A program made the translations under genes and the position numbers. The notes beneath the pieces are model-generated. The model searched no databases. It had not been told where the DNA came from and saw only the letters and a program-made list of their open reading frames with translations. Shown here one piece after another: positions 6,010-50,800 of a DNA stretch of 64,000 nt; position 1 is the stretch's first letter, and every line of letters begins with the position of its first letter. The DNA is taken from assembly GCA_964369695.1 (NCBI GenBank), contig CAYJGL010000001.1:123450-187449 (forward strand), given 5' to 3'. This DNA is from an uncultured Clostridium sp. (GTDB lineage Bacteria; Bacillota; Clostridia; TANB77; CAG-508).

Positions 6010-6825
6010 TTACGAATATGTTTTATCTAAAATTTCTTTTATTCTACTATTTTTATATTCATTTGCATATTCGTTTTTAATCATTGTTATTATTTTTTTT
6101 ATTCTTCTTTCTGAATTTGGGTGAGTACTTCCATAAATAAAATCTCTAATAATATATAATGTTCTTAAAAATTTCCCATGACTTTCTATTTCTTTATTTT
6201 TAAAAATTTTAAATGCATGTATTAATTCATCACCATATCCATATTCAACTGCTAATTTATCAGCATTATATTCTGACATGTGTTGAGTAAAATATAATGA
6301 TCTGCCTACTAAAAATAAAATTCCAAAAACACTTTGTCCAATTATAGGTATCTTTGATAATAAAGTTATAAATTTAGTAGACAATTCACTTATTTCATTT
6401 AAAACTTTTAAACCACCAGTTAAATGATTTACAATATGTCCTATTTCATGAAGTAATATGGCTGTAATTTCTCTAGGATTTAATTCATCTAATAATTCTT
6501 TACCATAAACAAGATGTAACCTTTCTATATTGCCTAATTCTATTTTCTTTTTATTTTTATTTATCTTTCCAAATTTATAAATAGGAATAACACAAAAATT
6601 AAAAGCACCTGAGCCTAAATAGTCAGTATATATTTCAACCTTGCAACTTAATAATTTAGATAAGTAAATTTCTAATTTTTTATTTAACTTTGCAATATCC
6701 AATTTATCTTTACATGCTTTTAATTGTTTAAAAATTAAATCAACTTGTTGCAATCCTTGCAATCTATTAGTTCCAATTTCTAATAAAACTTGTTGAGATA
6801 TAGATATATTATTTTGTTTGCACAT
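6010..6825 (-). CDS. M48 (HtpX/Ste24)-like zinc metallopeptidase
   Basis: HEIGH (HExxH) in ILLHEIGHIVNH; downstream EYNADKLAVEYG (E..AD..A); C-terminal THPNSERRIKKI like the M48 HP...eRI motif; hydrophobic segment IPIIGQSVFGILFLVG. Track start 6846 is GTG; ATG at 6825 has GGAGG 5 nt upstream. Confidence 0.75.
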   Translation of the reverse strand: MCKQNNISISQQVLLEIGTNRLQGLQQVDLIFKQLKACKDKLDIAKLNKKLEIYLSKLLSCKVEIYTDYLGSGAFNFCVIPIYKFGKINKNKKKIELGNIERLHLVYGKELLDELNPREITAILLHEIGHIVNHLTGGLKVLNEISELSTKFITLLSKIPIIGQSVFGILFLVGRSLYFTQHMSEYNADKLAVEYGYGDELIHAFKIFKNKEIESHGKFLRTLYIIRDFIYGSTHPNSERRIKKIITMIKNEYANEYKNSRIKEILDKTYS

Positions 6826-7771
6826 TATTTCCTCCATATTGTCCACATAATTGTTTATATAAGCAAAAGAAACAACCTTTCGTTAAGATATATTCATCAT
6901 TCATTGGAGGTATAATTTGATTATCAATATAATAATTAATTCTTTTAATTTTATTCAATAACCAATTCATATGTTCTGTTATATCCAATTTTGTTAAATT
7001 TAAATCTATAGATGTTATAAAATGAAATTGATTTTGTCTGGATTGTAATAATTGTTTGACTTGTTTTGCATTATTTTGAGCTTCACTAAATGATTTTACA
7101 TCAGATGACATTATATCATGAGCAACATATATTAATTGAATTAACTCAATATTGTAATGATCTAATTTTGGAGGAGGAGTTCTAGTATTTTGTTGAGATT
7201 GTATTTCTTGTAAATGATTTTCTAACAAATATTTATATAATAATGTTTGGTAAAAATCTTCATCTCTGGGTCTTTTACTTTTTATAATTTTATAATAATC
7301 AGTATATGTACAACTTTTAATTTCAACTAAAACATTATTATTGATTAAGCAGTCAATTCTTGTAGAACATTTTATAGAAGGAACTTTCATAGAGACTTCT
7401 TGTTCCGTAAATCCAGTATATGTTGATTGTATAAAATCATGTATTGCATTTCCTATATTCGCTCTCAATGATATAGGCAACCAAACATCATGATAATCAG
7501 CAATAGGATAATGTAATAATTTAAAAACAACATCTCTTATACAATTATGTGCAATATCATAAGAATTAATCAACTGAGCATTATTTCTATATTCTTTATT
7601 TTTATTATGTGACTTATCATTTAAATCGTCTATAAAATCCTGAACATGAAATAATTTAGGAGCAGGATTATTTTGAATTTGTAAATCTTGAGTTTGAGGG
7701 TTATTATCGTTATTGATATTTTGATTAGTAGTTTTATCATTTATATTATTTAAAAGATTTGTATAACTCAT
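6809..7771 (-). CDS. Cas4/RecB-family PD-(D/E)XK nuclease with Fe-S cysteine cluster
   Basis: RIDCLINNNVLVEIKSC (D...E-x-K), QTLLY (QxxxY motif), C-terminal C-x2-C-x5-C (CFFCLYKQLC), as in Cas4/AddB-type nucleases. Confidence 0.7.
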   Translation of the reverse strand: MSYTNLLNNINDKTTNQNINNDNNPQTQDLQIQNNPAPKLFHVQDFIDDLNDKSHNKNKEYRNNAQLINSYDIAHNCIRDVVFKLLHYPIADYHDVWLPISLRANIGNAIHDFIQSTYTGFTEQEVSMKVPSIKCSTRIDCLINNNVLVEIKSCTYTDYYKIIKSKRPRDEDFYQTLLYKYLLENHLQEIQSQQNTRTPPPKLDHYNIELIQLIYVAHDIMSSDVKSFSEAQNNAKQVKQLLQSRQNQFHFITSIDLNLTKLDITEHMNWLLNKIKRINYYIDNQIIPPMNDEYILTKGCFFCLYKQLCGQYGGNNVQTK

Positions 7772-9047: not shown

Positions 9048-9074
9048 AAATTATTCTCCTTCTATGTATATTCT

Positions 9075-9092
9075 TTATATCTATATTTTTTT
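9075..9092 (-). promoter_or_regulatory. Promoter-like motif AAAAAAATATAGATATAA
   Basis: Read on the minus strand. Lies 27 nt upstream of ATG 9047, directly after the terminator hairpin. Confidence 0.4.
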
Positions 9093-9094
9093 GT

Positions 9095-9140
9095 TTCAAA
9101 AATAAGAATGAGAATAACTTAAAAAAATATTCTCATTCTT
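9095..9140 (-). terminator. Rho-independent terminator
   Basis: 13-bp perfect stem AAGAATGAGAATA (9104-9116) / TATTCTCATTCTT (9128-9140), enclosing the TGA of gene 9133-9696. Followed on the minus strand by ATTTTTG. Confidence 0.65.
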
Positions 9141-9696
9141 TCTTATTAATCCACCGATAAGGAAATAACCAAGTTTCTATTTCTTTTCCATATTTTTTAG
9201 TAGTTATTAATGGTTTAAATTTTATAGATTTTGAATTTTTATTATTATGTATTTTTATTTTACCAATATAATTCATATCAATAGGTTTAGTTATCCAAGT
9301 TTCATCAGTAACATCAGCATCAAATACTAATCTTCGTTTTACAATTTCTTTATTAGAAATAATATGATTTGGACTTATTTTATTTTGTTTAATAGCATAA
9401 ACATATCCTACGGCTACTCTACTTCTAAATCCTTCGTGTCGAAATTTTTTAGCTTTATCAGCTCTTACAAATACATATGGAGAACCTAAAATACACCCAT
9501 CTATACTAGTCGATACACATATTCTAGGAATATGCCCGTCTTCTAATGATTTAATATTTACTTGAGGAACTCTTGGAATTAATTTTATTTTTTCTCCATA
9601 ATATTTCATAGATAAGTGATAATAATATATATTATCATTATCAACATCATCAATATAATCAGATAAAGATTCATATACTAACATATTGATATTCAT
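9133..9696 (-). CDS. N-terminally tagged protein (MNINMLVYESL...), function unknown
   Basis: 187 aa, AAGGA SD. Carries the shared tag. Contains YYYHLS...LIPRVP, similar to the YLYHIS...LLSPRG segment of ORF 32222-32797. Confidence 0.8.
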   Translation of the reverse strand: MNINMLVYESLSDYIDDVDNDNIYYYHLSMKYYGEKIKLIPRVPQVNIKSLEDGHIPRICVSTSIDGCILGSPYVFVRADKAKKFRHEGFRSRVAVGYVYAIKQNKISPNHIISNKEIVKRRLVFDADVTDETWITKPIDMNYIGKIKIHNNKNSKSIKFKPLITTKKYGKEIETWLFPYRWINKKE

Positions 9697-9939: not shown

Positions 9940-11412
9940 TTAATATTCTTCATCTGGTGAATATGTTTCTGGTGAATATGTTTCTGTCGAATATGTTTCT
10001 GAAGAAGTTTCTGGGAAATAAGTCCCATACGATTCTGTATTTTCATTATCTGGTACTGTATTTTCTGCAGAAGTGAAATTTTCTGAAATAGTATTTTGGG
10101 ATTCATATTGTTGATTTTCTATAATTGGATTTTGATATGTTTCATTTTCTATAATTGGATTTTGATATATTTCATTTTCTATAACGACATTTGTATTATC
10201 ATTATCTTTACTATCTGCTAAATTTTGTTCATATAATGTTCTAAATAACATTACTCCAATTCTTTGTTGAGCAGAAACCGTTGCAGCATAATCAAACCAT
10301 TGTTTAAAATTAAGATCACTATTGTATTTTTTTATAAAATCTCGTTCATTAAATTTTTCACTAGAATACATCAATTCACCAGTATTAGGATCTATTACTT
10401 CTAAATGTCTAGCATTTGTTGCTCCATTTATTAGTAAAGGATATGGCATTTTCTTTTTATCTGGCCAAAATTTCTTTTCTGTCTTAGTTTTATTTGCCAT
10501 AAAATAATATTCACTTAAAACAGGAATAATCCCATATTTTTTATCAAAAACTAAGGGAATAGAATATTGTGAAGGAGCTAATTTATTCTTTTCAGTAAAT
10601 ACATTTAAAACCCAACCATCAACACCAAGTGGGTCAGTTGGCTTGAGTTGAACTCCTTTAGATAACCACAACCATTGTCTAACATTGTGTTGAAGAGCAC
10701 TCACATTAGTTGCAGATTTAAAATTACCAAAAGTACCAACAGTCTTTTCATCTGTAGCTGCTTGCCATGGTGCTTTAATTTGCATATTTGCTCTGACTTG
10801 ATCTATGACTATGAAAGTAATTCTATGCATTGCTAAAAATTGTTTAGCCTTTGTTAACTGAAATGTTAATTCTCTTGCTTTATATCCTATAACTTCATTT
10901 GGGTCTTCGGCATTTAAATCTTTACTCGATGGAGTAGCAGCAATAGAATCCCAAACTACCAGAATATCATATTCTTTCTGAGTTTTAACTTCCATTTGTT
11001 TCTTTAAATCAGCAAGTTGTTCTATTACTTCAAATATTTCTTTAACATTCATAACAAAAGGTTTATATAAAAATCTTTCTCTATCAATACCAAAAGTTTC
11101 AATACGATCTTCAATATCTTTACTTTCGCCACCAGCTGCAGATTCTGTATCTAAATAAATAACACATGAATTTTCATGTATTTTTAAAAACTGAGAACAT
11201 AAATATAATGAACATGTTGATTTCCCAGTTTCTGGAGTACTAGAAAATGCAACAGGACAACTAGATGTTATTCCTCCACCTAATAGAGCATCTAAATGTT
11301 TAATTCCTAATGGAGTTATGCATGGATTAGGAGGTATATAACTTCCATATTTTTTTTGTAAAGTAATATCAAATGCTTTTGTGAGTATGGCGGCATGATT
11401 TTTTTCAGACAT
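9940..11412 (-). CDS. RecA/UvsX-family recombinase with repetitive acidic C-terminal tail
   Basis: LDALLGGG...STPETGKST (Walker A), ILVVWDSIAA (Walker B), FIVIDQVRANM (RecA INQIR-like). The tail has ENE(I/T)YQNPII and ETYSP repeats. Confidence 0.75.
   Translation of the reverse strand: MSEKNHAAILTKAFDITLQKKYGSYIPPNPCITPLGIKHLDALLGGGITSSCPVAFSSTPETGKSTCSLYLCSQFLKIHENSCVIYLDTESAAGGESKDIEDRIETFGIDRERFLYKPFVMNVKEIFEVIEQLADLKKQMEVKTQKEYDILVVWDSIAATPSSKDLNAEDPNEVIGYKARELTFQLTKAKQFLAMHRITFIVIDQVRANMQIKAPWQAATDEKTVGTFGNFKSATNVSALQHNVRQWLWLSKGVQLKPTDPLGVDGWVLNVFTEKNKLAPSQYSIPLVFDKKYGIIPVLSEYYFMANKTKTEKKFWPDKKKMPYPLLINGATNARHLEVIDPNTGELMYSSEKFNERDFIKKYNSDLNFKQWFDYAATVSAQQRIGVMLFRTLYEQNLADSKDNDNTNVVIENEIYQNPIIENETYQNPIIENQQYESQNTISENFTSAENTVPDNENTESYGTYFPETSSETYSTETYSPETYSPDEEY
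9956..10000. repeat. 15-bp tandem repeat x3 in the recombinase 3' end (ETYSP)n
   Basis: GGTGAATATGTTTCT x2, then GTCGAATATGTTTCT. Confidence 0.85.
10114..10185. repeat. 30-bp tandem repeat about x2.4 in the recombinase tail (ENE(I/T)YQNPII)
   Basis: ATTTTCTATAATTGGATTTTGATAT(G/A)TTTC repeated. Confidence 0.85.
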
Positions 11413-11437
11413 TTAAAGTATTCCTTTTTTGTTAAAA

Positions 11438-12010
11438 TTATAGTCTATACTTATCATCATCTTCTATTCTTGTCATAATATTTGATAATGAATTATTTTT
11501 AATTTCATTTTCAGTTTCATTTTTTAAACTTGATTTTTCTAGATTATTTAACATTTCAACTAGTCTTGCTGTATTTACCTCTTGAGATTTATCTTCTAAT
11601 CCTAATTTTGCTAATTCAATTTCAATATATCTTGCTTTTCTACAGATAAAATCAGACTGTTCTTTTCTATATCTAAATTTAACTTCCATAGCTTTAAGAT
11701 ATAAGCTTTCAAAAGTGGCTATTAATTCTAAACATTCATTTAATATTTGATAAAATTTTCCTCTCTGCCCAGGATTAGTTTCATTATTTATTAAATTTTT
11801 TAAATTATTAACTTGAGTTTGTAAACTAGAAATATAATCTTGTATTTGTATTAATCTTGTATCAACATGATTAATATCATTATTATAATTTGTTTTAATT
11901 TCAATGAAATCTTTACGATCATCACCAGGAGATTCTACAGTTGGTGTTTGAGTTATAAGATTATCTATCTGATTTTTATTATAACTTTTACTATAATTTT
12001 TATTATTCAT
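11438..12010 (-). CDS. Coiled-coil protein (190 aa)
   Basis: Heptad-rich sequence (LQTQVNNLKNLINNE...). No enzymatic motif. Confidence 0.7.
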   Translation of the reverse strand: MNNKNYSKSYNKNQIDNLITQTPTVESPGDDRKDFIEIKTNYNNDINHVDTRLIQIQDYISSLQTQVNNLKNLINNETNPGQRGKFYQILNECLELIATFESLYLKAMEVKFRYRKEQSDFICRKARYIEIELAKLGLEDKSQEVNTARLVEMLNNLEKSSLKNETENEIKNNSLSNIMTRIEDDDKYRL

Positions 12011-13271
12011 TATATTCTCCTAAGCCAGATAAAACTATTTTTAAAAATTCTTTTAATTGTTCAACAAATTTTACACCAGATAAATTAACAGAAGTTAGAG
12101 TTAACATATCAATGAACTCTCCTTTTGTTAATGAATTTGTAAATGTTATAGAAATATTATTCACAACATCATATAATATATCTTTATTCAAAACATTTTT
12201 AAATTTAAGATATAGTACATCTTTTACAGCTTCTTTTATCATTATTATATCATTGTCTAAAAAAGTTTTATTATCTGATATTATCTGAACAGATCTTAAT
12301 AATCTATATATTTGTGGTAACTTATATTTTATATTAGACATTTCTTTCATATCTGTATGGATTTTTAATAAAGAAATTTTATTATTATTAATATTAAAAT
12401 TACCATCTGTAATAGAATATAAATATAAGCGTTGTAATTCATTTGGGATTATCATATTTTTTATCATGTCATATTGATTATTTATCCGATTAAGAGCACC
12501 AGATTCACTACACATACTTTGTATTTGACTTAAATATAATGCTTCTTCATAAATTTTATATCGTTCGGACAATACTATATTATTATCATCAAGTATATTT
12601 GGATCTATATCACAATTTTTAACTCCTGAAATCTTATGTTTTAAATAAAAATATAAGATTTTACTAAACAGAGCTTCATAAAATTGATCAATATCTTCCA
12701 TTTCAAAAGGATTGAATTTGTATATTAAGTTATTAAAAAACATTTGCATAACATCATTTTTAATAATCATATTATCAGATTCATATAAATCTTTGTAAAA
12801 ATCTATAGCATGTGATACTTTATGTTCTATCTTAACATATGCATTTTTTAAATATCGATATATCAATCTCCTAGCTTTTATTAAGTGTTTTGAACATAAA
12901 TTTATTATATTTATAAAATAAATTCTTTCAATATATTCATTTTCTTTTAAATCAAGATGTTTCACATTATATCTTAAAAATAAATTAGAAACAATATACA
13001 ATATATATAATTGTTGTTCTGAAGTTGTTAATTTTAAAATATTAGGACAACTATAATTATATATTTTATCCAAAAAAGGACCCATAATTTCTTTAGATAT
13101 AGAATATTGTCCTTTTGTTTGAAATTTAACTTGTAATTTTATTATTTTTTGAATATGCGGTCCTATTTCAGATTCAAATAACTCATCTAGTGGTATAAAA
13201 TTAAATTTAATACAAATATCATTATTGTCTAATAAGGTGTTGTCAAAAATTTCATCAAATACATTTGACAT
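12003..13271 (-). CDS. Hypothetical protein (422 aa)
   Basis: Long ORF with GGAGGA SD; the SD and start lie inside a 10-bp inverted repeat (13272-13316). Confidence 0.8.
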   Translation of the reverse strand: MSNVFDEIFDNTLLDNNDICIKFNFIPLDELFESEIGPHIQKIIKLQVKFQTKGQYSISKEIMGPFLDKIYNYSCPNILKLTTSEQQLYILYIVSNLFLRYNVKHLDLKENEYIERIYFINIINLCSKHLIKARRLIYRYLKNAYVKIEHKVSHAIDFYKDLYESDNMIIKNDVMQMFFNNLIYKFNPFEMEDIDQFYEALFSKILYFYLKHKISGVKNCDIDPNILDDNNIVLSERYKIYEEALYLSQIQSMCSESGALNRINNQYDMIKNMIIPNELQRLYLYSITDGNFNINNNKISLLKIHTDMKEMSNIKYKLPQIYRLLRSVQIISDNKTFLDNDIIMIKEAVKDVLYLKFKNVLNKDILYDVVNNISITFTNSLTKGEFIDMLTLTSVNLSGVKFVEQLKEFLKIVLSGLGEYNE

Positions 13272-13316
13272 ATAAGATCCTCCATATAATAGTTAAATCC
13301 TTATGAAGGATCTTAT
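13272..13316 (-). promoter_or_regulatory. 10-bp perfect inverted repeat sequestering the SD/start of gene 12003-13271
   Basis: ATAAGATCCT (13272-13281) pairs with AGGATCTTAT (13307-13316). On the minus-strand RNA the downstream arm covers AGGA of the GGAGGA SD and runs up to the ATG at 13271. Confidence 0.45.
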
Positions 13317-13340
13317 ATCTTTATACTCTTGTTTATAAAT

Positions 13341-13628
13341 TTATGACTTAAATCGCAAAACAGATTTTCCATTAGGAGAGTTTAATGAATCATCTCTGGC
13401 AAACGAAGATTGATTTCCAAATCTCAAAACACTTCCACTATTTGAATTAAGATTACTTGAAACATCAAAATTTTTTGAAGTCCCATAATTTAAAACAGAA
13501 CCAGAACGAGTATTTATTTCACGACCACCATCATCTTGGTAAGATGGATATTTATCATTATACATTTCTGCACCATGAAAACCTTGCTGTTCAGTTAAAG
13601 CATCCATAACTAATTGATTAATGTCCAT
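13341..13628 (-). CDS. N-terminally tagged small protein (MDINQLVMDAL...)
   Basis: Track start 13637 sits directly on the SD; ATG at 13628 is 9 nt after GAGG. Three internal repeats: GSVLNYG / GSVLRFG / KSVLRFK. Confidence 0.7.
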   Translation of the reverse strand: MDINQLVMDALTEQQGFHGAEMYNDKYPSYQDDGGREINTRSGSVLNYGTSKNFDVSSNLNSNSGSVLRFGNQSSFARDDSLNSPNGKSVLRFKS

Positions 13629-13666
13629 AATTTTCATCCTCTAATGATATTATTGTTATTTTTTAT

Positions 13667-14566
13667 TTATTTTTTTAAATATAAATCTAATTTTTTCAAA
13701 ATAAATTTAGAACCTATATTTAAATCAATCACTCTTTGATTAATATTTGTGGGTAACTTCCAATATCTTAATATAGGACCACTACATAATCTTCCTATCA
13801 ATTCATATATTTTATCAATATAAACATCAGTATTTGTATCTCCAATTATACAAACATGGATAGCATCTGAAATATCAAATGGTTTTGTTTTAAAAAAAGA
13901 ATTATCTGATTTTTTGAGTTTTAAGTTATTTGAATTTATTAATTCTAATGCTTTATTTGTATTTATAGGATATTTCATATCTAATGGTCTTGTATTAAAT
14001 ATATAATATTGTCCTTCTATAATCTCAATACAATAATGCCATGGTAAAAAATCTACAATTCCCTTAGTATATATATTTTTATAATGATATTTTATTAAAG
14101 GTAAATTAAATTTAGAATTATCTAATTTAGGTTCAGGCATTGGAAATATAAGATTATTATAAGTATCTTCTATTATAATACCTTCTGGTTTTATTTGTAT
14201 CTTATTTGAACTATTAGAAGTATCAGATGCTGCTAATTCTGCTGGAGTTGGTTTTATTCTATTATATAATTCATCTTTATCTCTATTAAAAAGTTTATCT
14301 TTGACTGATTTTTTTACAATATCAGTTGTTATTTTTTTAGCTATGATAGTTGCACCAGCAGCAGCTATCATAGCTTCTGGAGAAGATGCTACAGTACTTG
14401 CAACTTTACCTGGAAGAGTCAATGCTGGTATAGTTGATTTTTTTCCAATATAATAAGCAGCTGATAATCCTAAACCACCAACAGTAGCAGCAACTGCATT
14501 TTGTTCTAATAGTACATTAGTTTCTTCAAAATCAAAAATAGATTTTTGTATTTTTGGAGTAGACAT
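13667..14566 (-). CDS. Membrane-associated protein with glycine-zipper N-terminal region (299 aa)
   Basis: AVAATVGGLGLSAAYYIG and AAAGATIIAKK segments. Lies directly downstream of the MreB-like gene. Confidence 0.75.
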   Translation of the reverse strand: MSTPKIQKSIFDFEETNVLLEQNAVAATVGGLGLSAAYYIGKKSTIPALTLPGKVASTVASSPEAMIAAAGATIIAKKITTDIVKKSVKDKLFNRDKDELYNRIKPTPAELAASDTSNSSNKIQIKPEGIIIEDTYNNLIFPMPEPKLDNSKFNLPLIKYHYKNIYTKGIVDFLPWHYCIEIIEGQYYIFNTRPLDMKYPINTNKALELINSNNLKLKKSDNSFFKTKPFDISDAIHVCIIGDTNTDVYIDKIYELIGRLCSGPILRYWKLPTNINQRVIDLNIGSKFILKKLDLYLKK

Positions 14567-14582
14567 TTTCTCTCCAATTAAT

Positions 14583-15686
14583 TTAATGTTTTAATGCTCT
14601 AATTAAACATCCTTCAGATACTGCTGTTAATGGATTATTAGCATGTCGTATTTCTGAAATTTCGAATGGAAATTCATATGAATTAAATTCATTTATAAAT
14701 ATGTCTAAAAATCCTTTAGCTTTTGATGTTCCACCACTAATAATGACTGGGATTTTGTCAGGAAAAGCTATATCTATCTTCTCTAATTTTTTAACTATAT
14801 GATCTATTGTATACTTTATTAAATCATTATAATAATAAGATAGTGCTTCTCTTATTCTTCTTTCTTTTTTATTAGAAGTTATAAAATTAGAAATATCAAA
14901 ATCATCTTTCTCTTTAACCAAAGTAACCCGATTACTGACTAATCCAGCAATATGAGATGACGTTTGTTCATCTATCCAATCACCTCCTCTAGCTAAAGAA
15001 AAATTAGAAACTTCTACTCCTTTAAATACGATTGCTATATTTGTCATACCAGCACCAAATGATATTCCAATACCAGTAAAATCTGAATTTTGACATTCAG
15101 AATAAATCAAAGAAACAGCTTCATATAATGGTAGAGGTTTATAATTTAATTGTTCAATTATTCTACTAAATACATTTTTATGAAATAAAACATTCATATC
15201 AACATCTATAGGATTAGCAGGTATACTATAACAACAAATAGAATTAGGATTAGTAGAATTTCCTATTAAAGCTCCTATAATAACTGATAATATATCTATA
15301 GAATCTATTTCTGAATTACTAATCATTCCTTTAGACATTGGTCTAGAAACTTGTTGTCCGAATATATTACCAAATATATAAGCATCTTCTGATAAAATAT
15401 ATGTACTGTCATCAATAACGGTATGAGAAATAGTACTCAAATCTCTTGTTCCTAACGAATCTGTATCTACTTTTAAAAAAACATTTCTAAAACTATGAGT
15501 AGATATTTTATTATCAGCTAAATTTTTTGCCATAACGATATTCATAGTTCCTATATCTAAACCTATATTATTAGATATAACAGAAGTATCTTCAACAGAC
15601 ATAAAATCAATCTCCTTTAATGATGTTATTAAACTCTCAACTACTAATCCTATTGAATATTCAAATTGATCATAATCCATATTCAT
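14583..15686 (-). CDS. MreB-like actin-fold (ASKHA) ATPase
   Basis: Phosphate-1 GLDIGTMNIV; phosphate-2 GISFGAGMTNIAIV followed by ARGGDWIDEQ (compare MreB RIGGDRFDEA); adenosine motif VIISGGTSKAKGF; C-terminal ANNPLTAVSEGC (compare MreB AEDPLTCVARG). Confidence 0.75.
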   Translation of the reverse strand: MNMDYDQFEYSIGLVVESLITSLKEIDFMSVEDTSVISNNIGLDIGTMNIVMAKNLADNKISTHSFRNVFLKVDTDSLGTRDLSTISHTVIDDSTYILSEDAYIFGNIFGQQVSRPMSKGMISNSEIDSIDILSVIIGALIGNSTNPNSICCYSIPANPIDVDMNVLFHKNVFSRIIEQLNYKPLPLYEAVSLIYSECQNSDFTGIGISFGAGMTNIAIVFKGVEVSNFSLARGGDWIDEQTSSHIAGLVSNRVTLVKEKDDFDISNFITSNKKERRIREALSYYYNDLIKYTIDHIVKKLEKIDIAFPDKIPVIISGGTSKAKGFLDIFINEFNSYEFPFEISEIRHANNPLTAVSEGCLIRALKH

Positions 15687-16189
15687 GTACTAATATTTAA
15701 ATGTTCGATTATTTCCTGTGTGTTTTTATGACATTGTGCTGATTTGATATCAACTATAACGGCTGTAGATATTTGATTTATATTTGGTATAAAACAATTT
15801 TCTTCTTTGATAGTCTTTTTAATTATATGATGTTTTGTTGGCACAACACAAGATGTAGTATCATATTCATTTTGATTAGAATGACATTCACATTCATGAT
15901 GAGGATGATGAGGATGATGATGAGGATGGTGAGAATGGTGATGGTGATGATATGGTGAAGTATGATGATGTAGATGATGATATGGTCTTGGGTGGTATAT
16001 ACCAGTAATATTTTCAACTATAAGTAATCTATTATTAAGCTCTGATAATTGACAAAGTATTCTTTCCATCAATTCTTGATTCTGTTGTCTATGTAAAATA
16101 TCATAGTGAAATTTACAATAACCATTTAATACGGATGGACTATCACAGTTTTTAAACTTGCATATACCTGCAGGGCATGCTTTGTTCAT
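15683..16189 (-). CDS. Cys-rich zinc-ribbon-like N-terminus plus histidine-rich tract protein
   Basis: CPAGICKFKNCDSPSVLNGYCKFH at the N-terminus, then HPRPYHHLHHHTSPYHHHHHSHHPHHHPHHPHHECECH. ATGA overlap with the MreB-like gene. Confidence 0.7.
   Translation of the reverse strand: MNKACPAGICKFKNCDSPSVLNGYCKFHYDILHRQQNQELMERILCQLSELNNRLLIVENITGIYHPRPYHHLHHHTSPYHHHHHSHHPHHHPHHPHHECECHSNQNEYDTTSCVVPTKHHIIKKTIKEENCFIPNINQISTAVIVDIKSAQCHKNTQEIIEHLNIST
15895..15985. repeat. Imperfect ATGATG/GTGATG microrepeats encoding a His tract
   Basis: GATGAGGATGATGAGGATGATGATGAGGATGGTGAGAATGGTGATGGTGATGA... Confidence 0.8.
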
Positions 16190-16446
16190 TATTCCCTCCT
16201 AGGTTGATTATATTTTCCTTCTTTTTTGGCTTTTCTTTCCATTTTATTAAGACGAGTATAGTAATCTGGTATTTCTGCTAAATGATCTTTTGCTATTTCG
16301 TCTGCTTTTTTAGGATCATTTGTATGTTCTTTTTCTACAGATCTTCCTATTTTCATTTGATTATTATTAAAAAATTTAGAATCAATATGTTGGTGTTTTC
16401 CTATACCTAAACTTTCTATAACTAAATTATTAATACTCATATTCAT
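16189..16446 (-). CDS. N-terminally tagged small protein (MNMSINNLVIESL...)
   Basis: 85 aa, AAGGA 7 nt before ATG, promoter-like motif about 50 nt upstream. Contains EKEHTNDPKKADEIAKDHLAEIPDYY. Confidence 0.7.
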   Translation of the reverse strand: MNMSINNLVIESLGIGKHQHIDSKFFNNNQMKIGRSVEKEHTNDPKKADEIAKDHLAEIPDYYTRLNKMERKAKKEGKYNQPRRE

Positions 16447-16497
16447 AATTATATCCTTAGTTCACTTTTTAAATATCTTAATTATCTTATATTTCAT

Positions 16498-16515
16498 TTA
16501 TATCTATATTTTTTT
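16498..16515 (-). promoter_or_regulatory. Promoter-like motif AAAAAAATATAGATATAA
   Basis: Identical 18-mer to the copy at 9075-9092, about 50 nt upstream of ATG 16446 in an 84-nt gap. Confidence 0.4.
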
Positions 16516-16530
16516 GTTTTATTTTAAAGA

Positions 16531-16755
16531 TCAATATTTATTTAAAATAGACTTATAATTTTGAACAGTATCTTCATCTTCATCTCTTTTAAAGCTAGGC
16601 ATATTATACTTTTTTTTAAAAAAACGATTAGAAGATTTTATTTTTTTACAATAATTATCAATATCAGTAAACGTTCCATTTATTTCTCCATCATATGCAT
16701 TGTCAAATACATATGATGGACTTATAGATTCATAAACTAATAAGTTTATATTCAT
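16531..16755 (-). CDS. N-terminally tagged small protein (MNINLLVYESI...)
   Basis: Track start 16767 is TTG and overlaps the upstream stop; ATG at 16755 yields the tag exactly at the N-terminus. Confidence 0.65.
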   Translation of the reverse strand: MNINLLVYESISPSYVFDNAYDGEINGTFTDIDNYCKKIKSSNRFFKKKYNMPSFKRDEDEDTVQNYKSILNKY

Positions 16756-16763
16756 AATACAAC

Positions 16764-17021
16764 TCAAACAAAGAAATCAGATGAATAATATGTAGGATGT
16801 CTTGATGACATATCTTTATTATACCTAAAACCAAAATCTTCAGAATTATCATCTTCTTGTATATTGTCAATTTCATCTAAATTTATATTTTCAATCATTT
16901 TTTTAAATTTATTAAATTCATTTAATGGTATTAAACAATGTTCATTTCCATTATAATAATGAGGTGGATTTGTTACTGTTTTTTGTATTAATATCTTGCT
17001 TATTTCTAGTAACTTTTGCAT
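16764..17021 (-). CDS. Hypothetical small protein (85 aa)
   Basis: ORF in tight operon spacing. Confidence 0.55.
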   Translation of the reverse strand: MQKLLEISKILIQKTVTNPPHYYNGNEHCLIPLNEFNKFKKMIENINLDEIDNIQEDDNSEDFGFRYNKDMSSRHPTYYSSDFFV

Positions 17022-21256: not shown

Positions 21257-24200
21257 TTATTTTATTTGTTTAGTATATATTTTCCATTCACCAATCGAAT
21301 GACCAGTTCCTCCTTCAGTTATAGAAGAATATCTACAAAGTCTATATCTATTATATTCATTGGTTATATTTTCTAAAGTAAATTCTTTAAGTACTAAATT
21401 TCCCCAAGTTTGAGGATCTGAAACATCATGAATTAAGTCCCAATTAACTCCATTATCTGGAGATGCATATAATCTCCACTTATTAAAACAAGGATGATTA
21501 TAATTGATTTGTTGAATAGAATATGAATATGGTTTAAACCGTATACTAAATTGAATATCTATGAATGGAGTATCCTTAATATTTGTCGGAGTATCCATAT
21601 GCCAACAATATGTATTTGATGTTGCTGTGTCAAATTTCTGTAAACTCCGATAAACCATATGTTGAGGATGTCCATGTTCAGCATTATATTCATACGTATA
21701 ACCATTTGGAGGAGTTTGTCCAGTCCAGGCAGGTAATATATCTTCTCCATTTTTATCATAAAAGAATATACTACCAAGAGTCTGACCTTCAATATCATAT
21801 ATCCAAATTTCATCATATTCAAAATCATAATCAAAATCTAATATCATTGAATGAGTTGCATCCCATTCTAATGAAGGTGCTATATTTAAAATTCCATCAG
21901 ATCCATCTCTTGTATAAGAATCATATAACAATACATATGTGTTTGTATTTGCAATTCTAGCTTTTAACTTATATTGATTGATAGTTTGTGCCAAATAACT
22001 CCCTCTTCTACAAATTTTAGCACTTTTAATAGATCTTGGGGATGGTATTGTTATTTTAAGAAATACAGTTTCTGAATTAAGACAGTTTCCTTGTTCATAC
22101 CAATCTTGATGATATGAACTAACATCTTTATTAAATGCTTTAAATGGATAATAATCAGTATTATACATGCTTGAAGCAGTTGCTCGTTGATAAATTTTCT
22201 GATCATTCCATTTTCCAGGAAGAGTATATGATAAAGTTTTATTAGTCATTTGACCTATAATATCATAAGCTTCATCCTGATATTCTGGTAATGGAACACC
22301 TTTAAATTCTAAAAATTTAGATTTTGATTGTTTTGTAAATATATTCCATTGACCAATAGCATGCCCTTCTCCACCTTCTAATGATGAATATCTTCTTAAT
22401 CTATACCTATTATATATATTTGTTATATTTTCTAATACAAAATTTTTAACTTCTAAATAATTCCAAGTTTGATGGTCAGAAACATCATGTATTAAGTCCC
22501 AATTAACTCCATTATCTGGAGATGCATATAATCTCCACTTATTAAAATTAGGATAATTTAAATCAGACTGTTGTAACGTATAAGAATACGGTTTAAATAA
22601 AGCATTAAAAATAATATCAATAAAAGGACTATATTCTGGCATTTTATCTTCTGAGTATGTTTTTGATCTTGTTGGTAATTGCCAAGATCTATTCGTTATA
22701 TGACCATCAGACAATATTCTCCAAGGTTTGAAATTAATATGATTTTGATAAGGATAACCTTCACATTCATATCCTTCTTCTAATTCCTCAGTAGTAAATC
22801 TTGGAAATATAGCCTTTCCATTATTATCATAAATATATATTCTGCTGATTAAACTGGTAGATATATCATATATATATATTTCATCAAATAATAAATCAGT
22901 AGGATTATACAATTCAAACTCTAAAGAGTCTTGGTTCCAAACTAAGTTTGAAGTTGTATTATTAAGTCCTTGATTTTCATAATTATTATATGTATCATAT
23001 AATAATATAAATTTAGAATATCCTAATGGTTTAGCTTTTACTCTAAATTGTCTTGGACTTCTATTATAATATGTTGATATTGTTGTTATCTTTAATTTTT
23101 TCAATATTTTAGGAATTGGTATTTTTAATCTAAAATAAGTGCAAGAATTATAAGTACCTAAACCATTTGCAGACCATAATGTATTATCATTATTATCAAA
23201 TGATTTAAATGGGGCAAAATCAATAAGATTAGCACCATCAATACTAGATGCTATAGTCTTTTGTTGAATAGGTAAATTTTCAAAATGACCATCAATAGTA
23301 TGTTCTAAAATATTAGAAAACATCATACCAATCATATTATAAATCTCTATAATAACTTCTGTACTTGGTGCTTTTGGATTAATATTTATTTGTTTAGTAA
23401 AAATCTTCCATTCACCAATAGAGAGATTAGAACCTCCTTCAGAAGTTGCATATCTTCTAAGTCTATATCTATTATACTCATTTGTTATATTTTCTAATAC
23501 AAATGTTTTTTCTACTAAATTTCCCCAAGTTTGAGGTTCTGAAACATCATGAATTAAGTCCCAATTAACTCCATTATCTGGAGATGCATATAATCTCCAC
23601 TTATTAAAACAAGGATGATTATAATTGATTTGTTGAATAGAATATGAATATGGTTTAAATCTTATATTAAATAAAATTTCTAGAAATGGTTCTACTTGAG
23701 AATTATGTGCATACCAACCACTATAAGATCCTGCGTTTGTAATTTTATTTAGAACGTTCCAAGTTTGCCAACCACTAGAACTGTACCATGGAAATATTTC
23801 ATATTCGTATCCAGATGGAGCAGATGAACTTGTCCATATAGGCAATATATCTTCATTATTTTCATCATAAAACCAAACACCAGTCATATGAGTAAATGAG
23901 ATGTCATAAAACCATATTTCATTAAATGATAAATCATATTCATTATCTAAATCAAATATTTTAAATGCTTCAGAATTTTCCCAAATTATACTAGGAGATA
24001 TTTCCAAAATACCATCCGAACCATCTGAAGTATATGAATCATACAATAGCACGAATTTATCTAAATCTGGACTAAATCCTTTAACTCTAAACTGAAGTAT
24101 TCCATCTTCAGAATAATTTGCTAATTGCTGTATTTTTATTTTTTTAAATATTTTTGGATTAGGCAATTTAACCCACATATATGCCGTTTCTTGAAAATGA

Positions 24201-25888
24201 CTTCCATTTCCAACATACCAATTTTGATAATAACTACTGACATCTTTATTAAATGCCTTAAACGATGCATAATTTGAATTATAAATACCAGAAGATAATG
24301 CTCTTTGGTGAATTTTTTCATTATTCCATTTCCCAGAAATATTATAAGAATGAGTATTTGAAGACATTTTTCCAATAATATCATAAGCATCTTCTATAAA
24401 TAATAAAACATCAACAGATATTGTAAAAGGATTGAAATTATAATAATATTTAATAAAATTAGAAATTAGACATTGTCCAATATATTGTATTATATGATCT
24501 TTTTCTCTTGGTTCTTTATACATAACTTTACCAGATTCTATATTAGAAACATATATATTAGAAGAAACGGCATTACTATTTGTTTGTTTAGTATATATTT
24601 TCCATTCACCAATCGAATGACCAGTTCCTCCTTCAGTTATAGAAGAATATCTACAAAGTCTATATCTATTATATTCATTGGTTATATTTTCTAAAGTAAA
24701 TTCTTTAAGTACTAAATTTCCCCAAGTTTGAGGATCTGAAACATCATGTATTAAGTCCCAATTAACTCCATTATCTGGAGATGCATATAGTCTCCACTTA
24801 TTAAAACAAGGATGATTATGATTAACTTGTTGAATTGAATAAGAATGTGGTTTAAACATTATACTAAATTGAATATCTAGGAATGGAGTATTCTTAATAT
24901 TTGTTGGAGTATCCATATGCCAACAATATGTATTTGATGTTGCTGTGTCAAATTTCTGTAAACTCCGATAAACCATATGTTGAGGATGTCCATGTTCAGC
25001 ATTATATTCATACGTATAACCATTTGGAGGAGTTTGTCCAGTCCAGGCAGGTAATATATCTTCTCCATTTTTATCATAAAAGAATATACTACCAAGAGTC
25101 TGACCTTCAATATCATATATCCAAATTTCATCATATTCAAAATCATAATCAAAATCTAATATCATTGAATGAGTTGCATCCCATTCTAATGAAGGTGCTA
25201 TATTTAAAATTCCATCAGATCCATCTCTTGTATAAGAATCATATAACAATACATATGTGTTTGTATTTGCAATTCTAGCTTTTAACTTATATTGATTGAT
25301 AGTTTGTGCCAAATAACTCCCTCTTCTACAAATTTTAGCACTTTTAATAGATCTTGGGGATGGTATTGTTATTTTAAGAAATACAGTTTCTGAATTAAGA
25401 CAGTTTCCTTGTTCATACCAATCTTGATGATATGAACTGACATCTTTATTAAATGCTTTAAATGGATAATAATTAGTACTATACATACTTGAAGCAGTTG
25501 CTCGTTGATAAATTTTCCGATCATCCCATTTTCCAGAAATAGTATGTTCTAAAGTTTTATTAGTCATTTGACCTATAATATCATACTCTTCTTCTGATTC
25601 TGGAGGTGTTCCCTCTTCAGTAGTAACAATATATCCAAATAATAGCAAGTCACAACGACTATTTGAAGATTTATTTTCTAAAGAAACAGCTCGTGCTGGC
25701 ATTTTTTCTGGATCAGATGATAATGCTTTCATCCATCGATTCAAAGGTATATCAAAATATAATATATCTCCTATAATAACAGATTCTCCAACTACACCAT
25801 GTGTATATAATCCTGAAGTATCATTTTCTGCTGTTATATTAAAATAATTATTGGACCCTTTTGTTAAAATATCAGAAATAAATTTCAT
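21257..25888 (-). CDS. Giant tail fibre / receptor-binding protein with four double discoidin-like units
   Basis: About 1543 aa. FNKWRLYASPDNGVNWDLIHDVS occurs four times, each followed by NEYNRYRL(R/C)RY...GG.G..IGEWKI(Y/F)TKQ. First and fourth units are nearly identical. Track start 25894 is TTG; ATG at 25888 follows GAGGA. Confidence 0.55.
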   Translation of the reverse strand: MKFISDILTKGSNNYFNITAENDTSGLYTHGVVGESVIIGDILYFDIPLNRWMKALSSDPEKMPARAVSLENKSSNSRCDLLLFGYIVTTEEGTPPESEEEYDIIGQMTNKTLEHTISGKWDDRKIYQRATASSMYSTNYYPFKAFNKDVSSYHQDWYEQGNCLNSETVFLKITIPSPRSIKSAKICRRGSYLAQTINQYKLKARIANTNTYVLLYDSYTRDGSDGILNIAPSLEWDATHSMILDFDYDFEYDEIWIYDIEGQTLGSIFFYDKNGEDILPAWTGQTPPNGYTYEYNAEHGHPQHMVYRSLQKFDTATSNTYCWHMDTPTNIKNTPFLDIQFSIMFKPHSYSIQQVNHNHPCFNKWRLYASPDNGVNWDLIHDVSDPQTWGNLVLKEFTLENITNEYNRYRLCRYSSITEGGTGHSIGEWKIYTKQTNSNAVSSNIYVSNIESGKVMYKEPREKDHIIQYIGQCLISNFIKYYYNFNPFTISVDVLLFIEDAYDIIGKMSSNTHSYNISGKWNNEKIHQRALSSGIYNSNYASFKAFNKDVSSYYQNWYVGNGSHFQETAYMWVKLPNPKIFKKIKIQQLANYSEDGILQFRVKGFSPDLDKFVLLYDSYTSDGSDGILEISPSIIWENSEAFKIFDLDNEYDLSFNEIWFYDISFTHMTGVWFYDENNEDILPIWTSSSAPSGYEYEIFPWYSSSGWQTWNVLNKITNAGSYSGWYAHNSQVEPFLEILFNIRFKPYSYSIQQINYNHPCFNKWRLYASPDNGVNWDLIHDVSEPQTWGNLVEKTFVLENITNEYNRYRLRRYATSEGGSNLSIGEWKIFTKQININPKAPSTEVIIEIYNMIGMMFSNILEHTIDGHFENLPIQQKTIASSIDGANLIDFAPFKSFDNNDNTLWSANGLGTYNSCTYFRLKIPIPKILKKLKITTISTYYNRSPRQFRVKAKPLGYSKFILLYDTYNNYENQGLNNTTSNLVWNQDSLEFELYNPTDLLFDEIYIYDISTSLISRIYIYDNNGKAIFPRFTTEELEEGYECEGYPYQNHINFKPWRILSDGHITNRSWQLPTRSKTYSEDKMPEYSPFIDIIFNALFKPYSYTLQQSDLNYPNFNKWRLYASPDNGVNWDLIHDVSDHQTWNYLEVKNFVLENITNIYNRYRLRRYSSLEGGEGHAIGQWNIFTKQSKSKFLEFKGVPLPEYQDEAYDIIGQMTNKTLSYTLPGKWNDQKIYQRATASSMYNTDYYPFKAFNKDVSSYHQDWYEQGNCLNSETVFLKITIPSPRSIKSAKICRRGSYLAQTINQYKLKARIANTNTYVLLYDSYTRDGSDGILNIAPSLEWDATHSMILDFDYDFEYDEIWIYDIEGQTLGSIFFYDKNGEDILPAWTGQTPPNGYTYEYNAEHGHPQHMVYRSLQKFDTATSNTYCWHMDTPTNIKDTPFIDIQFSIRFKPYSYSIQQINYNHPCFNKWRLYASPDNGVNWDLIHDVSDPQTWGNLVLKEFTLENITNEYNRYRLCRYSSITEGGTGHSIGEWKIYTKQIK
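21268..22275. repeat. About 1-kb intragenic direct repeat, copy 1 (fourth fibre unit)
   Basis: Near-identical to 24586-25593 at a constant offset of 3318 nt. The track shadow ORFs at 21559/24877 and 21583/24901 are almost identical. Confidence 0.85.
24586..25593. repeat. About 1-kb intragenic direct repeat, copy 2 (first fibre unit)
   Basis: See copy 1 (21268-22275). Confidence 0.85.
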
Positions 25889-25890
25889 AA

Positions 25891-26340
25891 TCAATCCTCA
25901 ATCATCTGTAAAACAAGTGGACTAAAATCAAAATATCCAACATTAGTTCCTAATGCTGTTCCTATTACTTGTTTAAATGAATTAGTAACAGGAACAATAT
26001 CTGTAGCTAAACCCAATTCAGTATCAGAAACGTAAATATAATTAGATGTAAAATTCCAATTATCATTTCTTATTGTTCCATTTTGTAATAATTTAATTGT
26101 AGAATCTACTAAACCATTTTCACAGGATATTGCTTTACAAGGTAATGTTTCTTGAATATTTGATTTAGCTAATTTCCATTTATTTAATTTAAAATCAAAA
26201 TATAAACATTGTCCAAAATAAACATCTTCTCCTAATAAGCCATCAACTATAAATCCACTATATTCAAGATTATTTGGAGCAACATTTACTCTTATTTTTG
26301 AATTAGGACCTAATGATTGTAAACTTCCTATTACTTTCAT
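25891..26340 (-). CDS. Small fibre-module protein sharing the fibre N-terminal anchor domain
   Basis: 149 aa. GEDVYFGQCLYFDFKLNKWKLAKSN..LPCKAIS aligns with GESVIIGDILYFDIPLNRWMKALSS..MPARAVS and GEDVKKGDLLYYDDNLKKYMKALSS..MPCRAIA of the two giant genes. Confidence 0.7.
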   Translation of the reverse strand: MKVIGSLQSLGPNSKIRVNVAPNNLEYSGFIVDGLLGEDVYFGQCLYFDFKLNKWKLAKSNIQETLPCKAISCENGLVDSTIKLLQNGTIRNDNWNFTSNYIYVSDTELGLATDIVPVTNSFKQVIGTALGTNVGYFDFSPLVLQMIED

Positions 26341-42513: not shown

Positions 42514-42522
42514 AAATATCTC

Positions 42523-42720
42523 TTATTTTAAATCATTAATTGATTGTTTTAGTCCATGTTTTAAACCTAATTCATATGCTTTTACATTACTTTTAACATT
42601 TGCTATTCCTCTAACTCTTCCAGATTTTGTAGTTCCATATTTCTTAAAACGTTTACTAAAATGATCTCGAGGATTGAACGATTCAGACAATATGTTATAA
42701 ATCATATTATTAATATTCAT
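42523..42720 (-). CDS. N-terminally tagged small basic protein (MNINNMIYNILSESF...)
   Basis: 65 aa. Tag variant with LSES. Confidence 0.6.
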   Translation of the reverse strand: MNINNMIYNILSESFNPRDHFSKRFKKYGTTKSGRVRGIANVKSNVKAYELGLKHGLKQSINDLK

Positions 42721-42731
42721 AATACAACTCT

Positions 42732-46504: not shown

Positions 46505-46528
46505 TGATTTATTTCTCCATTTGATCAA

Positions 46529-50786: not shown

Positions 50787-50800
50787 TATAGAGATATAAT
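50787..50800 (+). promoter_or_regulatory. Promoter-like motif variant TATAGAGATATAAT
   Basis: 38 nt upstream of helicase ATG 50839, in a divergent intergenic region. Confidence 0.3.

Follow-up and report, generated by a model that had tools for sequence, protein, structure and literature searches.

Gene content of the actin locus

We analyzed a DNA stretch of 64,000 nucleotides (nt; hereafter, the window) taken from contig CAYJGL010000001.1 (positions 123,450–187,449), in which five closely spaced open reading frames (ORFs) include a gene for an actin-fold protein of 367 amino acids (aa). The source contig is 263,784 bp in length and, based on its size and on the UvsX-like recombinase, tail protein, and helicase that it carries, is treated here as a jumbo-phage genome. 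An earlier reading made from the letters alone (hereafter, the sequence-only reading) had described a self-contained five-gene cassette with an MreB-like actin at its center, starting at a promoter-like motif and ending at an inverted repeat that sequesters a Shine-Dalgarno sequence. All five ORFs, each on the minus strand, and both bracketing elements are present:

16497–16513, minus strand: promoter-like motif AAAAATATAGATATAAA, upstream of the 85-aa gene
16189–16446, minus strand: ORF for an 85-aa protein (DUF5661) with a short N-terminal tag
15683–16189, minus strand: ORF for a 168-aa protein (adaptor candidate)
14583–15686, minus strand: ORF for the 367-aa volactin-family actin
13667–14566, minus strand: ORF for a 299-aa protein
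13341–13637, minus strand: ORF for a 98-aa protein with the same kind of tag
13270–13324, minus strand: promoter-like motif ATAAAGATATAAG (begins at 13324) and an overlapping hairpin

The 1-nt overlap (at 16189) and the 4-nt overlap (15683–15686) that had been noted between the 168-aa gene and its neighbors follow from the ORF coordinates, with the stop of the 168-aa gene overlapping the start of the actin gene by 4 nt, and the successive gaps among the five genes are −1, −4, 16, and 29 nt. Given the two bracketing motifs and these short gaps, the five genes could be one transcription unit and may be co-transcribed.

In close relatives of the locus (55–70% actin identity; L001–L005 and L009/L056, where L numbers denote related loci and P numbers, used below, volactin-family representatives), the gene order 93-aa, DUF5661, 168-aa, actin, 299-aa, 98-aa, 422-aa, 190-aa, UvsX is kept, sometimes with one to three extra genes inserted. 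When neighboring genes were clustered across 69 viral loci, only the 168-aa family proved near-universal, and the 299-aa, 98-aa, and DUF5661 genes were confined to relatives with at least 55% actin identity. Conservation of the five-gene order thus holds among close relatives but is reduced beyond them to the pairing of the 168-aa and actin genes, and a functional cassette of five genes was rejected: what stands of the self-contained cassette is a possible transcription unit, whereas the conserved functional pair consists of two genes only. The DUF5661, 299-aa, and 98-aa proteins are clade-specific neighbors, probably co-transcribed with the pair without belonging to its core.

The 367-aa protein is a volactin-family actin

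The 367-aa protein is an actin-fold ATPase of the volactin family. The Pfam Volactin profile (PF25216) matches residues 41–364 over profile positions 3–321 of 321 (E-value 3.5e-76, 257.2 bits vs. a cutoff of 35), and Haloferax loci (H. gibbonsii, H. prahovense, H. denitrificans, and others) match residues 42–364 with 37–39% identity (E ~1e-72), the relation to HVO_2015 of H. volcanii being judged from these other Haloferax loci and not from the H. volcanii sequence itself. Residues 1–40 form an acidic, phage-type N-terminal extension. The AlphaFold2 model is of high quality (mean predicted local distance difference test score [pLDDT] 89.8), and the protein contains the phosphate-1, phosphate-2, and adenosine motifs, with G46, T47, G211, G213, and G318–S321 invariant in 32 family members, in agreement with the actin fold and the three nucleotide-binding motifs recognized in the sequence-only reading.

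The top 50 Foldseek matches in the PDB are MreB, MamK, BeeR, actin, and Arp structures (~15% identity, TM-score ~0.6), the best being MreB (E 4.6e-14, TM-score 0.60–0.65), with MamK at TM-scores of 0.63/0.71. Because these 50 matches contain no Hsp70, sugar kinase, or PilM, the assignment to filament-type actin-fold ATPases stands. When the family profile was run against all PDB sequences, it found MamK (E 2.5e-5), FtsA (0.026), EutJ (0.061), BeeR (0.35), and no others, with ParM and Alp proteins absent at E ≤ 10. MamK (by sequence profile) and MreB (by fold) are therefore the nearest solved structures, but they differ from the window protein in their low identity and in genomic context, as neither a magnetosome nor an mreCD setting was found at the window locus; no mreC, mreD, rodZ, or elongasome family was detected among the proteins of 9940–16767 or in related loci. 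MreB identity was rejected, as the MreB_Mbl profile (PF06723) reaches 19 bits (cutoff 27) and aligns to no more than 39 residues, a score of 15.7 (cutoff 515) was obtained with the NCBIfam MreBH model, and NCBIfam gave no MreB assignment. Accordingly, the protein is closest to MreB by fold rank but not by sequence profile, which gives Volactin.

The name volactin dates from 2024 and was given to HVO_2015 of Haloferax volcanii. The filaments of this protein are dynamic, extend across the cytoplasm, and contact the membrane only at their tips, and the protein is required for the timely rod-to-disk transition; its discoverers postulate volactin-binding factors (PMC10869688). In vivo filament formation in this family has been demonstrated for Haloferax volactin only (PMC10869688), and membership in a family with a filament-forming founder leads us to expect polymerization of the 367-aa actin.

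A conserved candidate adaptor gene accompanies the actin gene

To describe the pairing of the two genes, 69 non-identical viral loci out of 510 viral contigs were compared. A member of the 168-aa family lies upstream of the actin gene on the same strand in 60 of the 69 loci and, in 32 of these 60, it ends no more than 200 nt from the start of actin homology. Nine viral loci lack the adaptor, and in four of them the sequence ahead of the actin spans less than 1.7 kb. The adaptor and actin pair is likewise present in a huge-phage record of GenBank (LR745208). Pairing at this frequency is hard to ascribe to chance.

No Pfam domain matches the 168-aa family, and its database entries bear no informative name. 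Its window member consists of a zinc knuckle, a coiled-coil-like segment, a His-rich linker, and a conserved C-terminal motif, three of which are located as follows:

16106–16162, minus strand: zinc knuckle C10-x4-C15-x9-C25-x2-H28 of the adaptor
15881–15994, minus strand: His-rich tract in the adaptor linker (residues 66–103)
15698–15793, minus strand: C-terminal motif F133-I-P ... L164 of the adaptor, a candidate filament-binding peptide

The sequence-only reading had proposed this protein, with its zinc ribbon and poly-His tract, as an adaptor coupled to the actin. It is a conserved neighbor of the actin, but what is conserved is the C-terminal motif and not the zinc or His elements. In 30 diverse adaptors, F133, I134, P135, and L164 are invariant or nearly so, and the C-terminus in distant phages reads FIPxxI...A..ALKxLRK with a Ser/Glu-rich stretch in between; we infer that this motif binds the filament. 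The zinc knuckle (C-x4-C-x9-C-x2-H/C), whose residues C10, C15, and C25 do not vary among the nine clade members (Desulfosarcina included), is confined to the window's clade and Desulfosarcina and is absent from the adaptors of distant phages, most phage adaptors having a different soluble N-terminal domain of ~60 residues. Assignment of the knuckle to DUF5763, Zf_WRKY19, or A20-type fingers was rejected (all matches below threshold). The His-rich tract is unique to the window's protein, falls in gaps in all aligned relatives, and has a coding stretch made of degenerate ATG/GTG trinucleotide repeats. The tract is probably a low-complexity expansion, and a functional metal site made of poly-His was rejected because it is not conserved in any relative.

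In the distant large phage clade, other genes recur around the actin (L006 10107–10547, 6818–7318, and 10965–15962, with equivalents elsewhere). These are a Zn_ribbon_8-like 146-aa protein downstream of the actin (45 loci), a protein of ~177 aa upstream (49 loci), and a large DUF4815-like protein just downstream (54 loci).

Distribution of the volactin family

Relatives of the 367-aa actin form 443 clusters (50% identity) at E ≤ 1e-30. They are encoded at no fewer than 561 places in GTDB species genomes (185,579 species scanned), among the matches listed in haloarchaea, Archaeoglobaceae, Thermoplasmatales, Magnetococcales, Planctomycetota, Omnitrophota, and Desulfosarcina, and in 510 stretches of IMG/VR, where many of the contigs are 200–350 kb long. 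Matches were found in two of 50,697 GenBank phage records, both of them unannotated uncultured huge phages, and in five of 72,556 plasmid records, all haloarchaeal megaplasmids of at least 360 kb. In a neighbor-joining tree, which is rough and midpoint-rooted without outgroups, the window clade is sister to Desulfosarcina and Magnetococcales, a second and larger phage clade is separate, and the haloarchaeal volactins form another group. In the available parts of the literature on volactin, jumbo phages, and phage actins, no description of the family in phages was found, and the words ‘phage’ and ‘virus’ are absent from the founding volactin paper (PMC10869688).

Some phage volactin genes are far longer (L074 and L077 8001–9588; P0185, P0188, P0189, P0191, and other representatives of 700–800 aa). 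The family profile matches two stretches in these proteins with a break near profile position 200, which suggests that they hold an inserted element such as an intein. In P0225 and P0305, an N-terminal zinc ribbon and a long acidic linker are fused to the actin domain.

Cellular counterparts of the pair

Partner genes also stand directly upstream of volactin in cellular genomes. In the chromosome of Desulfosarcina variabilis, metabolic genes flank an insert of two genes, one for a 137-aa zinc-knuckle adaptor and one for an actin. Directly upstream of volactin, 47 archaeal loci encode a DUF7139 protein of ~300 aa with four transmembrane (TM) helices. Its linker is disordered, and a helix motif similar to that of the phage partner lies in a small segment at its C-terminus. 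This protein corresponds to the CdpA-like HVO_2016, whose adjacency to volactin has been noted, and volactin was modestly enriched in CdpA pull-downs (PMC12126565). Thirteen Magnetococcales loci have, in the same position, a coiled-coil protein of ~135–150 aa with one or two TM helices and the C-terminus FIPxxQ...RTVxRSxEDxAKKLxSMQ. Profile-profile comparison of the C-termini aligned the phage partners with those of Magnetococcales over 47 columns (probability 81%, E 1.2e-5) and with the archaeal partners over 23 columns (probability 64%, E 6.6e-5).

In the 13 Magnetococcales loci, the TM adaptor and volactin are preceded by a gene for a FimV_N-domain protein (E 2e-10; L088 137–1879 and equivalents).

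Compared with Haloferax VolA (HVO_2015) and HVO_2016, the phage actin belongs to the same family and its partner gene likewise lies directly upstream on the same strand. The phage copy differs in being encoded by a jumbo phage, in its acidic N-terminal extension of ~40 residues, and in its phylogenetic position, as the tree places it with the bacterial copies of Desulfosarcina and Magnetococcales, outside the haloarchaeal clade. The Haloferax partner has four TM helices, whereas the phage partner is soluble and carries a zinc knuckle instead.

Proposed function and alternative explanations

Taking the observed family membership, fold, gene pairing, and motif conservation together, we judge it a little better than an even bet that the locus is a jumbo-phage volactin module in which the adaptor couples dynamic filaments to phage-specific cargo. 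The 367-aa actin would polymerize into dynamic cytoplasmic filaments like those of Haloferax volactin, and the translationally coupled 168-aa adaptor would dock on the filament through its C-terminal ‘FIP...amphipathic helix’ motif. An exchangeable N-terminal module of the adaptor, here the C-x4-C-x9-C-x2-H zinc knuckle, would then set what the filament is attached to. Because the cellular upstream partners have TM helices, they would anchor the filament to the membrane, and the soluble phage partner would instead tether phage cargo, be it DNA, particles, or a site of replication or assembly. During infection, the filaments would position this cargo in the manner of AlpA/AlpC, ParR/ParM, and PhuZ. 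The broader proposal that archaea, bacteria, and huge phages have in common a cytoskeletal module of volactin and a modular adaptor, with a constant docking peptide and an exchangeable anchor, is advanced tentatively, at odds somewhat short of even.

Several observations weigh against the reading as a jumbo-phage volactin module. In 17 of the 60 paired loci, more than 1 kb separates the adaptor stop from the point downstream where actin homology begins, and the zinc knuckle has no significant match to known DNA- or protein-binding fingers. No adaptor-actin fusion occurs among the long volactin representatives checked against the adaptor profile, their N-terminal extensions being acidic linkers or unrelated zinc ribbons, and no centromere-like repeats flank the genes, where only the His-codon repeats were seen. 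The likeness between the C-termini of phage and cellular partners consists of short motifs with modest scores and is suggestive, not conclusive. Moreover, four parts of the proposal are inferred: that the actin polymerizes, that the adaptor binds its filament, what the cargo is, and what the module does in infection.

The combination of an actin-fold polymer and an adaptor is also found in ParM/ParR/parC, in which the C-terminal peptide of ParR binds the filament and its N-terminal domain binds cargo. That system differs in its reversed gene order and in its centromere repeats, which the window lacks, and volactin is nearly absent from plasmids. The tubulin fold of PhuZ sets it apart from the window's filament protein, an actin fold, and we know of no dedicated adaptor gene for PhuZ. 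Jumbo phages of the Chimalliviridae encode PhuZ as a dynamic polymer and use it to position phage structures (PMC4244570). The closest functional precedent is AlpC/AlpA of the Corynebacterium glutamicum prophage CGP3, likewise a phage-encoded actin-like ATPase with a small adaptor encoded upstream, in which the co-transcribed adaptor ties phage DNA to the filaments for efficient replication (PMC4446434). AlpC is from a different actin family (the solved-structure profile search gave no Alp or ParM match) and, in contrast to AlpA, whose defined DNA-binding sites are located in the promoter region of its own gene (PMC4446434), the window adaptor shows no identified DNA-binding domain and no repeated sites.

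The AlpA/AlpC-like layout of an actin with a small upstream adaptor would also fit a type II (ParMRC-like) partition system of a plasmid-like prophage, with the zinc-knuckle protein as the centromere-binding protein. The knuckle and the coiled-coil-like segment of the adaptor, together with the movement of the pair as a two-gene unit into the D. variabilis chromosome, speak for this explanation, which we nevertheless regard as unlikely: iterated centromere-like repeats were not found near the genes, the few plasmids with a volactin are all haloarchaeal megaplasmids, the family profile does not match ParM among solved structures, and the cellular partners are membrane anchors, not DNA binders. 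We give slightly less credence to a takeover of host cell shape or wall, in which an MreB-like filament, a membrane partner, and the amidase-like 299-aa protein (described below) would remodel peptidoglycan. Its support comes from the MreB structures that head the fold matches, from the C-terminal NPLTAVSEGC of the actin, which presumably resembles the MreB C-terminus, and from the amidase/PGRP-like fold of the 299-aa protein, whose gene follows that of the actin in every close relative. An effect on cell shape is known for Haloferax volactin too, although this protein behaves unlike MreB (PMC10869688). At the window locus, the MreB profiles stay under their cutoffs, no MreC-, MreD-, or RodZ-like neighbors were detected, and the N-terminal extension is acidic and therefore unlike a membrane-binding helix, while the 299-aa protein has neither a TM segment nor a Pfam amidase match and is absent from 79 of the 86 loci of the first two sampling rounds.

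The phage pair could also interfere with or co-opt a host volactin, by competing with the host anchor or by co-polymerizing. The sister position of the phage clade to the cellular volactins of Desulfosarcina and Magnetococcales in the neighbor-joining tree, and a C-terminal motif common to phage and cellular partners whose anchor modules differ, are both in line with this idea. It is nonetheless improbable in our view, because most bacteria lack volactin (judging from the GTDB matches) and because the module is spread across very diverse huge phages. Finally, the 367-aa protein might be a non-polymerizing enzyme or chaperone of the ASKHA superfamily with an unrelated neighbor. Viral Hsp70s are indeed its best fold matches in a viral structure library, though this library holds no closer relative, and Hsp70s and sugar kinases do not appear among the top 50 PDB matches. 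With its 367 aa and no Hsp70 substrate-binding domain, with strong membership in a family whose founder forms filaments in vivo, and with a pairing that chance hardly explains, we consider a non-polymerizing role to be very improbable.

Phage cytoskeletons known so far are the PhuZ tubulin and a few Alp/ParM-type actins, and volactin is a different actin family from these. What is new at this locus is a phage member of the known volactin family; the combination of an actin and an adaptor is an already known kind of system. A protein named in 2024 from one archaeon is common in huge-phage contigs and travels there with a dedicated adaptor. Most related contigs of huge phages in the sample, and many microbes, have the pair, and this recurrence points to a viral cytoskeleton that is widespread and so far undescribed. 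If the shared modular system is real, it would be the most widespread phage actin cytoskeleton (at least 510 viral contigs) and would identify the postulated volactin-binding factor, with HVO_2016 in Haloferax, the TM adaptors in Magnetococcales, and the phage 168-aa family as candidates for the anchoring or regulation of volactin. The apparent design rule is a constant filament-binding tail with a swappable anchor, and the small, soluble phage versions lend themselves to work on filament-cargo coupling.

Clade-specific neighbors and the N-terminal tag

The 299-aa protein had been taken for a glycine-zipper membrane-type protein and thus for a membrane partner of the actin, and neither description was borne out. 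It has no TM segment (maximum 19-residue Kyte-Doolittle mean 1.25), its Gly/Ala stretch is poorly conserved and has pLDDT <50, and it occurs in close relatives only. In the AlphaFold2 model (mean pLDDT 75; residues 24–93 <50), a low-confidence Gly/Ala-rich N-terminal region is followed by a well-predicted domain at approximately residues 120–299. The top 23 PDB matches from Foldseek are all of the amidase_2/PGRP type, including the Ts2631 endolysin, AmpD, LysCS, and PGRPs, but they are weak (E 0.03–1, target-normalized TM-score [TMt] 0.42–0.56). Sequence searches of Pfam, PHROGs, NCBIfam, and PDB profiles gave no match, also when a 23-member alignment was used, and the invariant residues H177, E181, H237, and D247 did not map onto the canonical His/His/Cys(Asp) zinc site. 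The model therefore gives a weak indication of a soluble, divergent amidase_2/PGRP-like fold, and the protein may bind or cut peptidoglycan. A signal-anchor-release (SAR) endolysin was left unsupported, given the lack of a TM-grade hydrophobic segment. Only 21 homologs were found, and in the first two sampling rounds the gene lay near volactin in seven of 86 loci.

The 85-aa protein (83 aa if started at MSINNLV) is a member of Pfam DUF5661 (PF18905; E 1.2e-14, 54.8 bits vs. a cutoff of 27). Homologs lie upstream of the actin in L001, L003, and L004 only, and no mention of DUF5661 was found in the literature. The 98-aa protein (95 aa if started at MDINQLV) has no family match in the profile libraries searched, and its homologs in relatives are always encoded just before the homolog of the 422-aa gene.

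Both proteins carry N-terminal tags, as had been noticed. The tag, M(x)IN.LV.E(S/A)L, stands at the extreme N-terminus of four minus-strand ORFs (9133–9696, 13341–13637, 16189–16446, and 16531–16767), and looser copies occur on two unlisted small minus-strand ORFs inside 31953–32221 and 42514–42731. The tag sequences are MNINLLVYE/S, MNINMLVYE/S, MSINNLVIE/S, and MDINQLVMD/A, with the slash at a putative cleavage point, and the proteins that bear them are otherwise unrelated to one another. At least 12 small ORFs in relatives carry the tag, one of which overlaps a gene called as LigD_N family. The tagged proteins are thus not specific to the actin: the tag occurs genome-wide and on many unrelated small proteins, and it therefore appears to be a clade-wide sorting or processing signal. 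The T4 capsid-targeting sequence is an N-terminal leader with a hydrophobic-x-Glu cleavage site, and the window tags resemble it in length (~10 residues), in their place at the extreme N-terminus, in their occurrence on unrelated proteins, and in their hydrophobic-x-Glu end. By this analogy, and only as a hypothesis, the tag could be a T4-type leader for capsid targeting and cleavage.

Inserts directly beside the volactin gene in some close relatives (L002 2447–5167 and 7080–10114; L004 5224–5595; L005 2676–4586 and 7108–8922) are histidine-kinase, response-regulator, and PAS-domain genes, which may hint at signal-dependent control of the filament.

Promoter-like motifs and the hairpin before the 422-aa gene

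The promoter-like motif AAAAATATAGATATAAA at the head of the five genes proved to be a repeated and over-represented element. A second exact copy lies at 9074–9090 and, with up to two mismatches, there are nine matches vs. 1.65 expected, a number that was reached in 0 of 100 shuffles. Related copies of the form ‘A-rich + ATATAGATATAA’ occur at 9086, 13324, 16509, 17339, 55111, and 56761 on the minus strand and at 50788 and 56820 on the plus strand, 25–60 nt ahead of start codons, with the copy at 17339 preceding the 93-aa gene and that at 13324 preceding the 422-aa gene. We regard this form as a candidate phage promoter consensus, and AAAAATATAGATATAAA at 16497–16513, acting as a putative promoter, as the probable start of the transcription unit. 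A scan for generic sigma-70 sites (116 found vs. 124 expected) was uninformative in this DNA of ~25% GC content, and a terminator scan was likewise not above chance.

At the other end, the inverted repeat consists of two 17-nt arms (13270–13286 and 13302–13318) that are 94% complementary, and the hairpin has a minimum free energy of −24.2 kcal/mol (z = −4.5). It pairs the GGAGG Shine-Dalgarno sequence and the AUG of the next gene (12003–13271, 422 aa), so that the repeat described in the sequence-only reading does occlude a ribosome-binding site, that of the next gene. The hairpin is kept in L001 (9170–9247), L003 (8878–8955), and L004 (9414–9470) ahead of the homologs of the 422-aa gene, with compensatory changes in six of its 17 pairs. 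It belongs to this downstream gene and marks the 3′ limit of the five-gene unit. The promoter-like motif ATAAAGATATAAG overlaps the 5′ arm, which suggests that the 422-aa gene is translated only from transcripts of its own promoter and not from read-through. In certain T4 genes, the ribosome-binding site is occluded in read-through transcripts and freed when the transcript starts inside the hairpin, and the arrangement of hairpin and motif in the window may be similar.

Genomic setting

The minus strand carries nearly all genes between 1 and 50.7 kb of the window, and IMG/VR classes the syntenic relatives of the locus as viral. No tRNA genes were found in the window, and the sole DNA match to GenBank phages is a 117-nt piece of the DUF5661 gene in Synechococcus phage S-SRM01. 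A phage-type DNA helicase, PKD proteins, F5/8-type-C proteins, and sugar-modification enzymes are encoded in the window, and four other genes are located as follows:

6010–6846, minus strand: Peptidase_M48-like protein (E 4.9e-11)
9940–11412: UvsX-like recombinase
21257–25894: tail-type protein
27419–28891, minus strand: protein with five PKD domains (E 6.5e-66)

A 351-aa protein at 45473–46528 (minus strand) resembles adenylosuccinate synthetases. Its best match is the NCBIfam PurZ model (succino-amino-deoxyadenylate synthase; E 2.9e-68); the score of 230 bits misses the cutoff of 300 but far exceeds that of every PurA model. With this PurZ-like gene, the phage may replace adenine by 2-aminoadenine in its DNA.

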